DNA of 64,000 bases from Patescibacteria group bacterium. Its GTDB lineage: Bacteria; Patescibacteriota; Patescibacteriia; Patescibacteriales; UBA12465. This document shows, piece by piece, positions 11,356 to 25,581 of the stretch. Every line of letters begins with the position of its first letter. Position 1 is the stretch's first letter. Position numbers and translations under genes: made by a program. Under the pieces are notes generated by a model that saw only the letters and a program-made list of their open reading frames with translations, did no database searches and was not told where the DNA came from. The stretch covers positions 64,576 through 128,575 of the forward strand of contig JBAZZR010000001.1 in the NCBI GenBank assembly GCA_041658665.1, written 5' to 3'.

Positions 11356-12543
11356 ATGTTGTGGTTAAATTTTTTACATTTTTATCAGCCGGCTAACGCC
11401 GAATTTTACAGTATCAGGAAAGCGCTCGATAAAAGTTATTGGCGCTTGCTTCGTTTACTAGAAGAGCATCCGGATTTACGGATGACCATTAATATCAGCG
11501 GTTGTCTTTTAGAGCGGTTAGAGACAGAAAAAGAGACAGCTTTTTTAGATCGTCTTAAGTTTCTCGTTAAAAAAGGACGACTGGAATTAACGGGTTCGGC
11601 CGCTTATCACGGTTTTTTGCCACTTCTACCGGCGGCGGAGATTATTCGTCAAATCAGAATTAATGAAAAAATTTTACGTCATCATTTTGGTAAAAATTTT
11701 CGACCGGCGGGATTTTTTCTGCCGGAGATGGCTTACTCGCCAGTTGTCGCTAAGATTGTAAAACGTTTAGGTTATCGCTGGCTTATTTTAGATGAGCTAG
11801 CGTTTAGTGGTTTAGGTTATAAAAAACCAGAAGCTTTAAAGCCTTATAGCGACGCAGCGAGCGGTTTAAGAGTTATTTTTAGGAATCGAGAACTATCTAG
11901 TGCTTATCCGCCTGATAAGCTATGGCCGTTATTTAAGAAATTGAGCGTTGCTATGACCGACGTTTTTGTGACGGCGACCGATGCGGAGCTTTATGGTTTG
12001 CGTCATGAAGATCCGACGGCGGAGTTAGAAAAAATTGTAAAATTAAAAACATTATCGACGACGACCATTTCGCTTTTTTTTAAAAAAATTGGTCAGCAGA
12101 ATTTAGAAAAAATAAATTTAACCGCCTCTTCTTGGGAATCGACCGGGGCGGATTTGAAAAATCGGCGACCCTACGCGCTGTGGTTTGATAAGCGTAATAA
12201 AATACAAACTGCGCTTTGGAAATTAGCTAATTTTTCTTTGTCTCTAGAAACTAAATTTAAGGCCGATAAGAATTTTTATTGGTACCGCTGGCATTTAGTT
12301 CGCGGTTTGGCTAGTTGTACTTTTTGGTGGGCGAGCGCGCGCGATTTTTCTAAAATTTATGGCCCTTACGCTTGGAGTCCTGACGAAATCGAGCGCGGTT
12401 TAGAGGATTTAATTCGTTCAGTTCGTTCTTTTTCCGATCCTAAAACTAAACAGTCGAAATTAGTAGCGGAGAAATATTATTTAAAGATTAAAAAGCTAAT
12501 TTGGGAGGAGCATTGGCAAAAACACTGGCAGAAAATTGTTTAA
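11356..12543 (+). CDS. glycoside hydrolase family 57-like protein
   Basis: N-terminal LHFYQP segment and TDAELYGLRHED resemble GH57 catalytic regions. Sits next to glgA. Confidence 0.6.
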   Translation: MLWLNFLHFYQPANAEFYSIRKALDKSYWRLLRLLEEHPDLRMTINISGCLLERLETEKETAFLDRLKFLVKKGRLELTGSAAYHGFLPLLPAAEIIRQIRINEKILRHHFGKNFRPAGFFLPEMAYSPVVAKIVKRLGYRWLILDELAFSGLGYKKPEALKPYSDAASGLRVIFRNRELSSAYPPDKLWPLFKKLSVAMTDVFVTATDAELYGLRHEDPTAELEKIVKLKTLSTTTISLFFKKIGQQNLEKINLTASSWESTGADLKNRRPYALWFDKRNKIQTALWKLANFSLSLETKFKADKNFYWYRWHLVRGLASCTFWWASARDFSKIYGPYAWSPDEIERGLEDLIRSVRSFSDPKTKQSKLVAEKYYLKIKKLIWEEHWQKHWQKIV

Positions 12544-19570: not shown

Positions 19571-19599
19571 TTGACAATAATCTAAAACAATGCTAAACT
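19571..19599 (+). promoter_or_regulatory. sigma70 promoter driving the island RNA
   Basis: TTGACA (19571-19576), a 17-nt spacer and TAAACT (19594-19599). Predicted start near 19606. Confidence 0.65.
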
Positions 19600-19605
19600 T
19601 AAGGT

Positions 19606-20400
19606 ATCGAAAATGAGAAAGGAAAGAGACGGGCAAAACAAGTACATTACATTCAAATAAAATAATGGAAGGAGAGAGTCATTATTAATCACGATACTAT
19701 TACTTCTATAACAAGGGTACTAGGCGGATTGAGCTTTCTCATTCTATATAGAGACAGATTTTTCCGCCCAGTACCCTTTTTGGTCAAAAAACGGAGCGGA
19801 TAGTCCTGAAGAGGAGAGAGGTTTAGCCGCTGCCTTAGTGCCCACAGCCTAAGGCGGAACTAAATAGTAAGAATGGTTATTAGGAATAGAAATATTAATG
19901 GTTAGCGCCACCCCATGTTGCTAGCCAGAGTTCCCGCCGGGCCATTTAACGAACTCCCCTTCATAACTATCCGCTTCAAGCGGAAACCGAAGCGACTACG
20001 GGATAGTTGCCCCAATTATTTAGGGAATAAATAACAGTTAAACTAATTTGTCAATTTTGGGAGATTAAATGGACACATAAGCTTTAGAAATAAAGTGGAG
20101 AGGGTTCATCTCCTGAGATTAACAAAAGTTTGACAGTTTGCTTCCGGATTAAATCCGGAATCAGGCGCCAAGTGAGTCAGGGCCAAGAAGCGTCGCAAAC
20201 CGCTTCAAGGTCGAGACGATCTTAGTACGGCGTGGCTCAGTTATCCGCCAGCTGGCGGATGAGCAAGCTCCCGGGACAGCACTAACGCCACCGTCTTCTT
20301 ACGAGGAGATCGGCTGAGCCCTAAACCTTGAACAAGCTTAGGCCCAGAAATTTCCTCGGAAAAATATAAGTTTGAGAGGGAAGAGTTCTTTAAATTATTT
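19606..20400 (+). ncRNA. candidate large structured non-coding RNA (~0.8 kb, unclassified)
   Basis: No ORF of 60 aa or more on either strand in the supplied track. Local GC by hand count is 35/60, 38/60 and 30/60 for the lines starting 20161, 20221 and 20281, against an AT-rich background. There are many verified hairpins (19715-19776, 19832-19855, 19973-19993, 20142-20160, 20187-20206, 20243-20260). The 3' boundary is uncertain. Confidence 0.6.
19715..19781 (+). terminator. terminator-like or attenuator hairpin inside the island RNA leader
   Basis: GGGTACTAGGCGGA ... TCCGCCCAGTACCC (14 bp, one mismatch) followed by TTTTT. It could end a ~175-nt sRNA or act as an attenuator. Confidence 0.4.
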
Positions 20401-20650: not shown

Positions 20651-20865
20651 ACTGTAAAAAAAATTTCTAAAAAAAGTTTCTAAAAACGCCGATATGCGGC
20701 ACGATTCCTAAGTTTCCGGCTTACCTCCAAGGTATCAAAGGGCTGTTTAGAAGGAATCAAAAATTTTAAATTAGTTTAGCTTATTCTGATTACAAAAAAT
20801 AAGCAGGCCATCCTACCGGACCGCCGAGGCTATCACTACGCCTGAAGTGTCCACCAAAGTTTAAA

Positions 20866-20943
20866 GAGCAGTGTCGTTCAAACATTGCTCTCCCTCCCGG
20901 GATGTGCGTCTCGGCTGATGAGTCGAAAATGACGAAAGGGAAG
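20866..20943 (+). ncRNA. type III hammerhead ribozyme, copy 1, with a 5'-adjacent hairpin
   Basis: Core: UCCCU-C (C17 at 20896). Stem I is CCGGGA/UCUCGG with loop UGUGCG. CUGAUGA at 20915-20921. Stem II is GUC-GAAAAU-GAC. GAAA at 20934-20937. Stem III is GGGA pairing with UCCC. Predicted cleavage falls between 20896 and 20897. The upstream hairpin is 20866-20890. Confidence 0.85.
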
Positions 20944-20986
20944 AACATTTACAACTAAATAGACAGTAATTTCATTTTTTGACTGA

Positions 20987-21048
20987 TTTATTTTAGTTAT
21001 TATTTTTAAAGTTTTAAAAAAGACTTTAGGGATAATAACTAAAATAAA
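20987..21048 (+). repeat. conserved AT-rich long hairpin (copy 1) between the ribozyme and the downstream start codon
   Basis: Arms TTTATTTTAGTTATTAT / ATAATAACTAAAATAAA form 17 perfect bp. The homologous copy at 24167-24225 carries compensatory changes. Confidence 0.7.
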
Positions 21049-21060
21049 AAGGAATATAAA

Positions 21061-21918
21061 ATGAAAGAAAAATATTATTTAATTAGCGATGATCTTGTTT
21101 TGTCTGAGCAAGAATTCGTTAATAAGTACAAAGTGTCTCGCGCGACTTACTATCGTGCCAAAAAGTCCGGCTATTTCATGCTGGAATATCATAAGAGGGA
21201 GATTGAGATAAATAGTGTTTTTGTTGAAAATAATTTGGCGTTAATATTTGAGTGCGCCAAGATGGCGTCGTATATTGTAGCGAGGAGATACTGGGGTCCT
21301 CTTTATTGGAGAGAAATTCAAAAAAAGTTTGGCATCACAACCGTCGACTTCCGTGATGAGGCGTTTTTGAGAATTGTTGAAAGGAGTGCGCATATTGCTG
21401 AAAAAACAGCTGGTGCTAGCGATAGCTCAAGACGTTGTTATATGCTAAAAGCCGCAAAATACGCGGTGCAGGAGTTTATTTCATTAAAACTATTTCGTTA
21501 TAGTGATAGGAATAGTCGTTTTGACGAAGAAAATAACGAAGAGGATGATAGGAGCGGTAGGATCTTTTCCTATGATCCAACCAATGAAATACATGCGCGC
21601 GTTGACACAATGGGTTCTAGAACTGAAAAAATTATCCGCTTATTAAACGAAAATGAGCGGAAAATATTTTTGGCCATCTGCGCTGGCTGGGATAGGGAGG
21701 AAATAGCGTTTCTAGATAACATAGATAACATTACGTCCACTGAAATATTAGATCGGATTAAAAAAATAATTAAAAAAATCCGGCTATTGTATGGAATTAG
21801 TGAGGGAAGAGTTGATTGGTATCCGCCTAAAACGGATAAAAATCACTCAGAAGAATTGCGTCAACTTCGTAAGAAAGTAGCGCAATATCTAAATGAAAAT
21901 TCTGTTCACTTAGTGTAA
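21061..21918 (+). CDS. divergent sigma-70-like / HTH DNA-binding protein
   Basis: N-terminal HTH (KVSRATYYRAKKSG). The C-terminal segment LNENERKIFLAICAGWDREEIA...ILDRIKKIIKKIR resembles sigma-70 region 4. FRDEAFLRIVERS resembles region 2. No database check was possible. Confidence 0.45.
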   Translation: MKEKYYLISDDLVLSEQEFVNKYKVSRATYYRAKKSGYFMLEYHKREIEINSVFVENNLALIFECAKMASYIVARRYWGPLYWREIQKKFGITTVDFRDEAFLRIVERSAHIAEKTAGASDSSRRCYMLKAAKYAVQEFISLKLFRYSDRNSRFDEENNEEDDRSGRIFSYDPTNEIHARVDTMGSRTEKIIRLLNENERKIFLAICAGWDREEIAFLDNIDNITSTEILDRIKKIIKKIRLLYGISEGRVDWYPPKTDKNHSEELRQLRKKVAQYLNENSVHLV

Positions 21919-22706: not shown

Positions 22707-22717
22707 TGCTAAGTTCT

Positions 22718-22800
22718 GCAGATTAGTTTGTTCAACTAATCTGCCTCTTTTCAAGGGCAGTAAAAATTTTAGTGCCCTTGAAATCGGATTCTTTAATAAC
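22718..22800 (+). terminator. double-hairpin terminator-like module, copy A
   Basis: Hairpin 1 is GCAGATTAGT/ACTAATCTGC followed by CTCTTTTC. Hairpin 2 is TCAAGGGCA/TGCCCTTGA with a loop GTAAAAATTTTAG. The homologous module is at 25404-25470. Confidence 0.55.
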
Positions 22801-22827
22801 GTGAGTCAGAAATAATCTTTATTTCAC

Positions 22828-22885
22828 AATATTGGACAGTACTTTGAATATATTTTAATAAATATTTAGAGTACTGCCCAATATT
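22828..22885 (+). promoter_or_regulatory. internal promoter bracketed by 16-nt inverted repeats (candidate operator)
   Basis: TTGAAT (22844-22849), a 17-nt spacer and TAGAGT (22867-22872). It is flanked by AATATTGGACAGTACT (22828-22843) and AGTACTGCCCAATATT (22870-22885), which match at 15 of 16 positions as an inverted repeat. Confidence 0.45.
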
Positions 22886-22971
22886 AGGCAGGGTCAGCCA
22901 ATGTCCAGTCGTAGTCCGTAAAAAAATAATTAGGACCAGACAAATGACAACGGCAAAAACAAGGAGTAGAA

Positions 22972-24008: not shown

Positions 24009-24060
24009 TTTTAGAGTAGGGTCGGCTGTATAAAATCTGGGGGCACTTAAGTTCAAAATT

Positions 24061-24139
24061 GAGCAGCTTTTGTTCAAAAGCTGCTCTCCCTCCCGAGATG
24101 CGTGTCTCGGCTGATGAGTCCGAAAGGACGAAAGGGAAG
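24061..24139 (+). ncRNA. type III hammerhead ribozyme, copy 2, with a 5'-adjacent hairpin
   Basis: Upstream hairpin GAGCAGCTTTT/AAAAGCTGCTC (24061-24086). UCCCU-C (C17 at 24092). Stem I is CCGAGA/UCUCGG. CUGAUGA at 24111-24117. Stem II is GUCC-GAAA-GGAC. GAAA at 24130-24133. Stem III is GGGA. Predicted cleavage falls between 24092 and 24093. Confidence 0.88.
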
Positions 24140-24166
24140 GACCTTAAAAATTAAATAAGACTATGA

Positions 24167-24225
24167 TTATTTAGTTACTATTTTTGAAGTTTTAAAAAAA
24201 GACTTTAGAGATAGTAACTAAATAA
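24167..24225 (+). repeat. conserved AT-rich long hairpin (copy 2)
   Basis: Arms TTATTTAGTTACTAT / ATAGTAACTAAATAA form 15 perfect bp. The T-to-C change on one arm is matched by an A-to-G change on the other, relative to copy 1. Confidence 0.7.
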
Positions 24226-24274
24226 TAAAAATCAAAAAATCCGCGGTCCCGACGTATTCGGGCAAGGAGAAAAA

Positions 24275-25387
24275 ATGGAACATATCAATAGTTTTGCTCC
24301 CGATGGAAGCATAACAGGATTAACTTACCGCCAAGCTTGTGCGGTAATATTTATCGCTACGGGGAATATGGAATTTCCTCCAAATCCTTTTGATAAGGAA
24401 GATATTAAAAGGATCGGAGGGACTTTTGATGGAAATAACGGTAATTACCCAAATCTTTATCCCGTCGAGGGCGGCGGTATAGAGTATGTTACCATTAGTG
24501 GCCGGAGTATTAAAATTACTCTGGACAATGATGGTCAATGGCGGCTGGACTGTTCCTCATGGTGGAGCAGTTCAAAAATATTTCAAGCGACAATCCTCGA
24601 TGCGCTAGAAGTAATGGCTTCGTACAAACTAGAGGACAACATTCCATTATCATATTTTGATAGGAATGTTAATTTTGAGGAAATTTTCGGACGAGTTTCC
24701 TTGGGAAATTTTGGTCAACCAGAGTTGGACGATCTGGCTTACATCTTATTTGACGGGAAGCTACCTGATGGCTACACCAGATTTCCACTAAAAATATCCT
24801 ATGGGGATATGGACATCGATGCGGACTATGAGTCCGTTTGGTATGGCGGAAAGAATTCTGGTGGTTGGGTCGGCTTTAAGGACTATGCCGATAAGCTAAA
24901 AGAGGGTGAAACAAAAGGGGTTAAATGGGAATTTTGGCAAGTAGGACGCCATTATTTCAACCAGTCTTCATTTAGTCATAATTATGACAGATGTGAAGAC
25001 ACTGGAGATTGGTACCTCTGTATTAATGGTGGTGTAAAAGTTACCGATGCGGAAGTTTCCGATAATCAAGAAGTTGTGAAAATACTTCAATTCGCGGGAA
25101 TTCCGACCAAGAAAAAAGATTTTATGGAGGCGTGGAATTTGGATATAACTGGAGAGTCTATCCCGACGCCATATTCCCAATATTATGGCGGAGAAAATTC
25201 CGGCGGAAACGTCGGCATTTCGATTGAGACCCGCTATGAAGGGCCAGAAGGAAAAGTGATTGAGAGTCGATCATTTAATGAGTCGACCTTTGATCACGAT
25301 GTGGATAAAATACGACCCGCTATCCATATCGTACTTCGTTCTGGTGCGCCCGTGATTGACATGTCGCGTATGTGGGCAGTATTGTAA
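24275..25387 (+). CDS. orphan protein (370 aa) with an internal duplicated motif
   Basis: AAGGAGA ribosome-binding site. Internal repeat YGGKNSGGWVGF...FNQSSFSHNYD versus YGGENSGGNVGI...FNESTFDHDVD. No TM or signal peptide. Confidence 0.6.
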   Translation: MEHINSFAPDGSITGLTYRQACAVIFIATGNMEFPPNPFDKEDIKRIGGTFDGNNGNYPNLYPVEGGGIEYVTISGRSIKITLDNDGQWRLDCSSWWSSSKIFQATILDALEVMASYKLEDNIPLSYFDRNVNFEEIFGRVSLGNFGQPELDDLAYILFDGKLPDGYTRFPLKISYGDMDIDADYESVWYGGKNSGGWVGFKDYADKLKEGETKGVKWEFWQVGRHYFNQSSFSHNYDRCEDTGDWYLCINGGVKVTDAEVSDNQEVVKILQFAGIPTKKKDFMEAWNLDITGESIPTPYSQYYGGENSGGNVGISIETRYEGPEGKVIESRSFNESTFDHDVDKIRPAIHIVLRSGAPVIDMSRMWAVL

Positions 25388-25403
25388 TAAATGTTCATAA
25401 TTT

Positions 25404-25470
25404 GGAGGTTAGTCAACTAACCTCCCCTTTTCCAAGTGCGATAAAATTTTAGCGCTTTTGGAATTCGATT
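25404..25470 (+). terminator. double-hairpin terminator-like module, copy B
   Basis: Hairpin 1 is GGAGGTTAG/CTAACCTCC followed by CCTTTTCC. Hairpin 2 is CCAAGTGCG/CGCTTTTGG with a loop ATAAAATTTTAG. Confidence 0.55.
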
Positions 25471-25476
25471 TTTTAA

Positions 25477-25581
25477 CCGCCTTTGAAGCGTAGAGCGGAA
25501 AAGACAGAGACATTATTAAACTCTCTCTCCTTAATATTGTACTTTCTTTTCACGACGCTCTACACTTGAGGGGCGGTTTTT
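25477..25581 (+). terminator. long imperfect hairpin plus T5 at the right edge of the island
   Basis: CCGCCTTTGAAGCGTAGAGCG (25477-25497) pairs imperfectly with CGCTCTACACTTGAGGGGCGG (25556-25576), followed by TTTTT. Confidence 0.5.

Follow-up and report, generated by a model that had tools for sequence, protein, structure and literature searches.

Hammerhead ribozymes between covarying hairpins at gene junctions of a Patescibacteria chromosome, and their proposed role in transcript processing

Two paralogous RNA modules in a chromosomal gene island

The stretch of DNA analyzed here (the window) comprises 64 kb of a metagenome-assembled genome from the Patescibacteria, or candidate phyla radiation (CPR), and holds two copies, 3.2 kb apart, of a composite RNA module situated between genes. 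Module A (20857-21053) and module B (24049-24269) are paralogues with a mean column identity of 76% over the aligned stretch, and in both a box of sequence AAGTTYAAA (box1) precedes a hairpin whose loop contains GUUC (P0), a complete type III hammerhead ribozyme, a spacer, an AU-rich hairpin of 28-29 bp and the next gene. An earlier sequence-only reading had proposed this paralogy and this order of parts, together with a selection on RNA structure that extends beyond the minimal ribozyme, and these proposals are borne out by the homologues described below. Both copies fold far better than shuffled sequence (z = -7.5 for copy A and -8.2 for copy B), and a covariance model of P0 plus ribozyme detects no third copy in the window.

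Along the plus strand, the order of elements is a promoter, an RNA of ~750 nt, an open reading frame (ORF) for a basic protein of 75 aa, module A, the genes for proteins of 285 and 250 aa, and a terminator-type junction (T1). Then come a stretch with an inverted repeat and promoter-like sequence, the genes for proteins of 192 and ~154/171 aa, module B, the gene for a 370-aa protein and a second terminator-type junction (T2). The surroundings are formed by chromosomal housekeeping genes (ftsK, Mur ligase, rpoB/C, murJ, lepA). In three genomes, the island is bounded by a shared divergent trmB-like gene with ~1.7 kb and, at the opposite end, by ftsK, and its cargo is variable; the same trmB-like gene also occurs at a further locus, L051, with 81% identity.

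The proteins encoded in the island are mostly without relatives. The 285-aa protein (gene 21061-21918) is recorded as a hypothetical protein of 'Patescibacteria group bacterium' and has a single homologue, in another Patescibacteria genome (locus L013), whereas a protein search with the 370-aa protein returned nothing besides itself. The cargo genes of the window matched no Pfam, PHROG or PADLOC family. The 75-aa basic ORF, which had been suggested as a partner protein of the modules, is present only in the window and at locus L053 and is missing from most related loci. Also, the label 'sigma-like' that one protein had received could not be confirmed, since the evidence for it consists of a weak helix-turn-helix match and marginal LuxR-type helix-turn-helix matches in the PDB only.

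The hammerhead ribozyme and the preceding hairpin P0

In copy A the hammerhead occupies 20892-20941 (+). Its stem III is formed by CCCU and AGGG, with C17 at 20896 and the predicted cut at 20896/20897, and is followed by stem I (20897-20914), CUGAUGA (20915-20921), stem II (20922-20933) and GAAA with the 3' strand of stem III (20934-20941). Copy B lies at 24088-24137 (+), with stem I at 24093-24110, CUGAUGA at 24111-24117 and stem II at 24118-24129, and the cut is predicted after C24092 (24092/24093). The layout corresponds to CCCUC, stem I (6 bp, closed by a loop of 6 nt), CUGAUGA, stem II (4 bp), GAAA and GGGA. When compared with the hammerhead core (C3 U4 G5 A6 N7 G8 A9, G12 A13 A14, the A15.1-U16.1 pair and H17), both copies show CUGAUGA, GAAA, A15.1-U16.1 and C17, which are invariant across the sub-family alignment described below. 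By core sequence, helices and topology the two elements classify as type III hammerheads, for which self-cleavage is predicted.

Each ribozyme is preceded by P0, a hairpin of 9-11 bp. In copy A, box1 (AAGTTTAAA, 20857-20865, +) leads into a P0 with arms AGAGCAGTGT and ACATTGCTCT and loop CGUUCAA (20865-20891, +), and in copy B, box1 (AAGTTCAAA, 24049-24057, +) is followed by a P0 with arms GAGCAGCTTTT and AAAAGCTGCTC and loop GUUC (24061-24086, +). A comparison of the copies shows that the differences in the P0 stem are paired, as the sequence-only reading had noted (GAGCAGTGT/ACATTGCTC versus GAGCAGCTTTT/AAAAGCTGCTC), and to these can be added a compensatory change that it had not listed, from G.U to C-G in stem II.

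A scan of metagenome contigs with the pattern CCCUC-stem I-CUGAUGAG-stem II-CGAAAGGG gave 74 loci, mostly genuine type III hammerheads. Among them and in related genomes, a sub-family with box1 and a GUUC P0 loop comprises 14 distinct modules (window A and B; L013 C and D; L053 a-c; L057; L037; L043; L048; L051; L058/L071; L079/L094), in which a AAGTTCAA-like box lies upstream of P0. The alignment used for counting pairs contained 88 matches to the model, 75 of them distinct. Among these 75 distinct sequences, P0 is 87% paired, with changes on both sides in 9/9 pairs, and the corresponding values are 99.1% and 6/6 for stem I, 100% and 3/4 for stem II, and 100% and 3/4 for stem III. Thus, 21 of the 23 pairs of P0 and stems I-III show changes on both sides, and the three helices, with an open stem III, covary as expected for a hammerhead. 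Shuffled and slid alignments remained 36-67% paired (36-50% for stems I-III in the slide controls). The alignment was fitted to the model, a procedure that favours pairing; nevertheless, the result is independent of this bias because the P0 stems are so different between members.

These data bear on whether the two copies are a functionless duplication in which compensation arose by chance, an explanation that we regard as extremely improbable. Two sequences alone do give only a handful of informative changes, but in independent homologues from no fewer than seven additional loci every helix is preserved by numerous double changes, which refutes it, and the shuffle and slide controls stay far below the observed values. 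The related objection that a recent duplication would be uninformative fails as well, since the window copies are too divergent.

The loops follow a different pattern from the stems. In P0 the stem varies freely while GUUC is invariant in the loop, and the second copy of the motif, in box1, is found 3-15 nt upstream; in stems I and II, the loops UGNNNG and GAAA-like are conserved in the sub-family. The presence of a hairpin abutting the ribozyme is not restricted to this sub-family, because a stable hairpin ending 0-4 nt before CCCUC was found in 41 of 52 good metagenomic type III hammerheads compared with 11 of 52 control windows. The P0 of copies A and B lacks the form of an intrinsic terminator, being followed by CCCUCCCG and not by U's.

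Other roles for box1 and P0 were considered and rejected. As -35 and -10 elements, box1 and the P0 loop would be separated by a spacing that changes from 17 to 23 nt between the copies. A pairing of box1 with the spacer motif fits only 4/8 members and is unsupported, and for GUUCAA as a mimic of a T-loop neither the register nor the loop size is adequate.

The spacer, the long hairpin and the downstream leader

Downstream of the copy A ribozyme, the spacer (20942-20986, +) carries the conserved motif ACAUUWAAAAHUNAAUAG, which is also present in a ribozyme-free leader at L057, and leads to an AU-rich hairpin of 29 bp, including 4 G.U, with loop AAAA (20987-21048, +). The ribosome-binding site (RBS) AAGGA (21049-21053) and the ATG at 21061 of the 285-aa gene follow directly (21049-21063, +). 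In copy B the AU-rich hairpin has 28 bp (24167-24225, +), and the ATG of the 370-aa gene is preceded by a small hairpin, GUCCCGACGUAUUCGGGC, and GGAG (24246-24277, +), a separately repeated leader element. The proposal that the long hairpin ends just before the RBS therefore holds for copy A, where it ends right at the RBS, but not for copy B, where ~40 nt separate it from GGAG (24266-24269) and hold the small hairpin (24246-24263). The conserved spacer between ribozyme and AU-rich hairpin measures 29-45 nt.

The AU-rich hairpin could be compared among five homologues (window A, window B, L013 D, L051 and L079), in which 97.9% of the cells are paired and 11/29 pairs are changed on both sides. 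Between the window copies, a U-A pair is replaced by C-G and one base is deleted on both arms, in agreement with the sequence-only reading. A U.G pair is fixed in 5/5 homologues at one position and in 4/5 at another, and the non-Watson-Crick positions are G.U 17 times in the sense-strand fold, compared with once in the antisense fold. Long hairpins of ~17 to 38 pairs, with unrelated sequences, occupy the leader position in 10/14 sub-family modules; they lie 0-40 nt upstream of the RBS, which none of them covers, and the 110 nt after the ribozyme give a mean z of -4.6 in the sub-family. This anatomy, a hammerhead and then a hairpin directly upstream of an exposed RBS, is that of the RiboJ insulator, a likeness that concerns anatomy only.

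A promoter within the spacer or the AU-rich hairpin was rejected, as only weak AT-rich matches to the consensus are found there, and a transcript starting from them could not form the covarying hairpin.

The small hairpin of copy B belongs to a recurrent leader, (G)UCCCGACGUAUUCGGGC followed by AAGGAG and a start codon, that is observed with and without an upstream ribozyme (window 24237-24274; L013 10835-10897; L053 5419-5460, 6437-6498 and 8244-8295; L057 423-465; L051 ~4500). At L013 10835-10897 the small hairpin and RBS stand alone, without a ribozyme.

The length of the AU-rich hairpin raises the possibility that it is a second processing site, where a cut of the RNase III type would take off the ribozyme remnant and place the mature 5' end beside the RBS. 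Enzymes of this type need a duplex of roughly 20 bp, and the uninterrupted duplexes of 28-29 bp fit such a substrate, cleavage being a prediction; long hairpins of 21-38 pairs predicted in other members, their distance of 0-40 nt from the RBS and the U.G pairs fixed at two positions, which suggest specific recognition, point in the same direction. On the other hand, no RNase III gene was seen in the window, which covers 64 kb only, the hairpin sequences are unrelated between members and 4/14 modules have none, and no second cut would be required once the ribozyme has acted. We consider this second cut unlikely, although it is compatible with the processing by the ribozyme alone that is proposed below.

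Terminator-type junctions and mosaic composition of the modules

The elements that close the gene blocks of the island resemble the upstream part of the modules. T1 (22710-22783, +) starts 4 nt past the stop codon of the 250-aa gene and consists of a TAAGTTC box, a P0-like hairpin with loop UGUUC (22718-22744), CUCUUUUC and a second hairpin (22748-22783), with no ribozyme; it was also flagged as terminator-like. Its paralogue T2 (25390-25463, +) lies directly after the 370-aa gene, with a first hairpin at 25404-25425, CCUUUUCC and a second hairpin at 25430-25463. Both share one build, in which a box1-like TAAGTTC or AATGTTCA is followed by a P0-like hairpin, CUCUUUUC or CCUUUUCC, a second hairpin and more U's. 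From this anatomy, T1 and T2 appear to be intrinsic terminators without a ribozyme. A homologue of T2 closes the L013 island (element 11695-11770, hairpin 11704-11730, loop CGUUC), and further terminator-type junctions occur straight after stop codons at L057 (~165-250) and L037 (4692-4713 and 5988-6009). The GUUC motif is thus common to ribozyme-type and terminator-type junctions.

The distribution of these elements suggests that P0 goes with the upstream gene, as its 3' end, and that the spacer plus hairpin leader goes with the downstream gene, as its 5' end. At L057 (322-465), a ribozyme-free leader made of spacer motif, AU-type hairpin, small hairpin and RBS stands behind a terminator-type element and a TATAAT box. 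The view of a composite module of ~190 nt has to be modified accordingly: it is present twice in the window, but it is not an obligate unit, because its three parts occur separately and recombine.

Module A itself is a mosaic. Its upstream flank and P0 are those of L053a, where the identical hairpin follows the same upstream sequence, whereas the 3' side of its ribozyme, its AU-rich hairpin and its gene are those of L013 D. Since the partners differ on the two sides, a crossover inside the near-identical ribozyme would be the explanation, and recombination between such cores may shuffle the cassettes. The homology breakpoints inside the ribozyme are assigned to window 20876, L013 9809 and L053 5393. 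L013 D and L053b, in turn, have matching P0 hairpins, each located after a B116-like gene.

The relatives are consistent with an exchange of cassettes. L013 has two modules, one before the orthologue of the 285-aa gene, with the same AU-rich hairpin, and the other before a radical SAM gene, with a different hairpin. A pattern scan of the species genomes gave five modules in a third related genome (L016, on the same contig as L053 and L057). Ribozymes in the same orientation flank single genes or short variable blocks, with further arrays at L037, L051, L063 and L042. Among metagenome loci L021-L094, arrays of two or three ribozymes are observed on many contigs (L063, L081, L042, L030 and L037).

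No association with phages emerged from these searches. Scans of viral contigs, made with patterns for stems II/III and for the type III ribozyme, a word covering stem I and the core, the inner sequence of the AU-rich hairpin and part of the large RNA, found no member of the sub-family, the matches being ordinary type I phage hammerheads, chance matches in coding sequence or generic type III ribozymes; cultured phage genomes gave no sub-family match either, and neither a Pfam integrase nor a PHROG family was found among the island genes.

The mosaic structure could also be read as a role at the level of DNA, in which hairpins or cores would serve as recombination sites or cassette boundaries (attC-like sites or miniature mobile palindromes) and the RNA folds would be incidental. 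In favor of it, the modules stand at the boundaries of variable cargo between the trmB-like gene and ftsK in three related genomes, and a homology breakpoint falls inside the ribozyme. Nonetheless, no recombinase or transposase was found among the island genes, and the hairpin is at the 5' side of genes, which does not correspond to an attC-like arrangement. Moreover, the full hammerhead core is kept in every copy, the G.U pattern of the AU-rich hairpin is that of the sense strand, all modules are in gene orientation between a stop codon and an RBS, and recombination between near-identical ribozyme cores of 49 nt accounts for the mosaics without a dedicated site. This reading is disfavoured, and we judge it very improbable.

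A proposed processing junction inside the operon

Transcription of the modules is suggested by their context. A sigma-70-like promoter, TTGACA-17-TAAACT, is found at 19571-19599 (+), with 10/12 matches to the consensus and a TG, in a stretch conserved in L013, L053 and L051, and it is likely, judging from its sequence and position, to be the start of a transcript running into module A. No terminator-like site was detected on the plus strand between the upstream genes and either module; therefore, each ribozyme would be inside a predicted transcription unit that ends in a terminator-type junction.

We propose, as a moderately probable explanation, that each copy is a ribozyme processing junction inside an operon, made of three separable RNA parts. 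Box1 and P0 would be the 3'-end element of the upstream gene; the type III hammerhead, with its very short stem III of 4-5 bp, would cut the transcript 5-6 nt after P0; and the spacer with the long hairpin (and the small hairpin in copy B) would be the 5' leader of the downstream gene. Polymerase starting at the promoter at 19571 would read through into the 285-aa and 250-aa genes, and a second promoter, upstream of the 192-aa gene, would feed the 370-aa gene. During transcription or soon after it, the ribozyme would cleave after C17, and the short stem III would allow the two halves to part. The upstream RNA would then end in P0 plus CCCUC with a 2',3'-cyclic phosphate and be shielded from 3' exonucleases, whereas the downstream mRNA would start with a 5'-OH, the ribozyme remnant and the hairpin of 28-29 bp, which would insulate the RBS from the upstream context and block decay dependent on the 5' end. 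In this way, the junction would do the job that a terminator plus a promoter do at the other junctions of the same island, while transcription continues uninterrupted.

Several observations weigh against this proposal. The two elements are not recovered by the hammerhead model RF00008 of Rfam, with copy B reaching 18.9 bits against a threshold of 48.5, with mis-assigned stems, and copy A unreported; a scan of the whole window and of the region gave only a tRNA above threshold, other weak matches being noise. The low score would be because of the short stems and not a core defect. The leader is less general than the ribozyme, as 4/14 sub-family modules lack a long hairpin and the 110 nt downstream of other type III hammerheads have only a weak excess of structure (mean z -1.7). 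A folding bias toward the sense strand, observed in 10/10 hairpins, had to be rejected as proof of selection at the RNA level because coding control windows are biased too (39/53), so that only pair-by-pair counts are reliable. Also, the model leaves unexplained the invariant GUUC, the conserved spacer and the fixed U.G pairs. Finally, a 5'-OH end can also mark RNA for decay, as for the products of the glmS ribozyme, degraded by RNase J1 in Bacillus, and the sign of the stability effect is for this reason unpredictable; no RNase gene was found in the 64-kb window.

The ~750-nt RNA and the GUUC motif

Between the promoter and module A, the stretch 19600-20390 (+) is free of ORFs, conserved and apparently structured, with homologues at L013 (5691-6444) and L053 (4114-5220). 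All three kinds of stop codon occur in all six frames, conservation is 79-85%, and among the three sequences 20 of 224 predicted pairs are changed on both sides. It has no match in Rfam. These features make it a candidate for a new large non-coding RNA or leader of ~750 nt. Its 3' domain recurs upstream of modules at L013, L053, L051 (2052-2121), L037 (715-844), L058 (2738-2822, -) and L079/L094 (L094 63-166), these being all the sub-family loci for which upstream sequence was available. The idea that this domain is a degenerate hammerhead was rejected, as it has CUGAG instead of CUGAUGA.

Within the large RNA, a hairpin at 20320-20342 exposes the loop CUUGAACAA, which is complementary to the GUUCAA of box1 and of the P0 loops and is conserved in the window, L013 (6368-6390) and L037 (804-824), in the last case on a different stem. 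At L058, a loop of sequence UUGAAU is matched by AUUCAA in box1, a single compensatory case.

This complementarity, along with the invariance of GUUC on freely varying stems, its second copy a few nucleotides upstream and its presence at both types of junction, could indicate that the modules are a regulatory platform, where both GUUCAA copies bind a protein (in the manner of nut boxA/boxB) or pair with the CUUGAACAA loop, and where cleavage or termination is controlled jointly at every junction. This appears rather unlikely. No binding protein was identified, with the small basic ORF limited to the window and L053 and the 285-aa protein to the window and L013; the covariation comes from a single locus, L058, whose P0 loop does not follow the change; and a DNA-binding protein would fit equally well, since GTTCAA and TTGAAC are, as DNA, one site in inverted orientation. 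Such regulation would be compatible with the processing junction proposed above.

Extending this idea, the island may represent a previously undescribed type of Patescibacteria locus, in which a trmB-like gene is divergent from an operon composed of the ~750-nt RNA and variable cassettes (in relatives, genes related to cyclic oligoadenylates), and in which cleavage and termination across the whole island are switched together, either by pairing of the CUUGAACAA loop with GUUCAA (in the box or the P0 loop) at each junction or by one factor that binds both. We offer this as a speculative and distinctly improbable scenario.

Three further features of the island can be mentioned. The cargo of the relatives includes AAA-Csx3, STIV B116-like/DUF1874, the Mvol_0529 family, a MoxR-type ATPase and a radical SAM protein (L053 5857-6168, 6500-8221, 8293-8688 and 8950-10176; L013 7183-7977 and 9419-9700), families that we take to be linked to cyclic-oligoadenylate signalling and to type III CRISPR accessory sets. 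An inverted repeat with arms of ~14-16 bp (TATTGGACAGTACT ... AGTACTGCCCAATA, 22824-22887) spans the AT-rich promoter-like stretch ahead of the 192-aa gene and has the look of an operator. A structured element of ~100 nt (GTAGAGCGGAAAAG ... CTCTCTCC ... CGCTCTAC) is repeated ahead of ftsK and, in L013, ahead of a cation-efflux gene (window 25486-25575; L013 11876-11975; L057 1395-1490; and downstream of the module at L043); it belongs to no Rfam family, the sole match being a microRNA at chance level.

Comparison with known systems

The ribozymes share with RF00008 (clan CL00010) the core, the three helices with an open stem III and closed stems I and II, and the C17 site. They differ from it in a stem III of only 4-5 bp with an extra 5' hairpin abutting it, in minimal stems I and II, and in their host, which is a Patescibacteria chromosome and not a viroid, a satellite or a eukaryotic repeat.

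Clusters of hammerheads flanking short gene blocks in prokaryotes have been described, and it was proposed that they cut long transcripts into gene-length mRNAs, according to the passages retrieved from Perreault et al. (2011, PMC3088659); in those of a 2017 review, the role of prokaryotic hammerheads figures among the open questions of the field (PMC6155905). As far as these passages describe them, those arrays show the same arrangement as ours, in which several ribozymes point the same way and border either one gene or a small group of genes that are not conserved (PMC3088659; PMC6155905), and the processing junction suggested above agrees with the role proposed for them. Here, in contrast, no integrase or phage gene family is found among the island genes, and scans of viral contigs and cultured phages gave no member of the sub-family. 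The modules turn the processing of long transcripts into concrete predictions, namely, ends at 20896/20897 and 24092/24093, 3' ends capped by P0, and downstream expression that depends on the leader hairpin.

An engineered counterpart is the insulator RiboJ, which in the passages retrieved is described as a hammerhead plus a hairpin of 23 nt ahead of the RBS, where cleavage removes the upstream context and uncleaved mRNA decays faster (PMC7536230). The succession of hammerhead and hairpin immediately upstream of the RBS is the same in both, whereas the element reported here is natural, with a hairpin of 28-29 bp, a conserved spacer of 29-45 nt and an additional upstream hairpin, and its function would follow by analogy. 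The common abutting 5' hairpin could improve search models for ribozymes and supply natural insulator parts.

Two other systems offer a more distant likeness. The nut sites of phage lambda consist of boxA plus the boxB hairpin, and the modules resemble them, in a resemblance only, by having a short box and then a hairpin conserved in its loop and not in its stem, in nascent RNA at operon junctions and terminators; the sequences are unrelated, and no N-like protein or Nus-dependent system was identified here. In the early mRNA of phage T7, with its RNase III sites, and in stabilizing hairpins of the repetitive extragenic palindromic (REP) type, long intergenic hairpins define or protect the ends within polycistronic mRNA. 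Here, the cut would be made by a ribozyme, and the hairpins are confined to one island, with two copies in 64 kb, instead of being spread genome-wide. Within this island family, the same gene boundary is built either as hairpin, ribozyme and leader or as hairpin, U-tract terminator, promoter and leader, which provides a natural comparison between the two.

The passages of the literature searched do not mention the common abutting 5' hairpin, GUUC in box and loop, a leader hairpin that covaries, an interchangeability with terminator junctions, a phage-free chromosomal setting in the CPR or the ~750-nt RNA, through which a large unannotated RNA is flagged in an uncultivated phylum. Clustered bacterial hammerheads are, then, already known, and what the present modules add to them is the set of elements that flank the ribozyme, along with the GUUC motif and an upstream RNA of ~750 nt.

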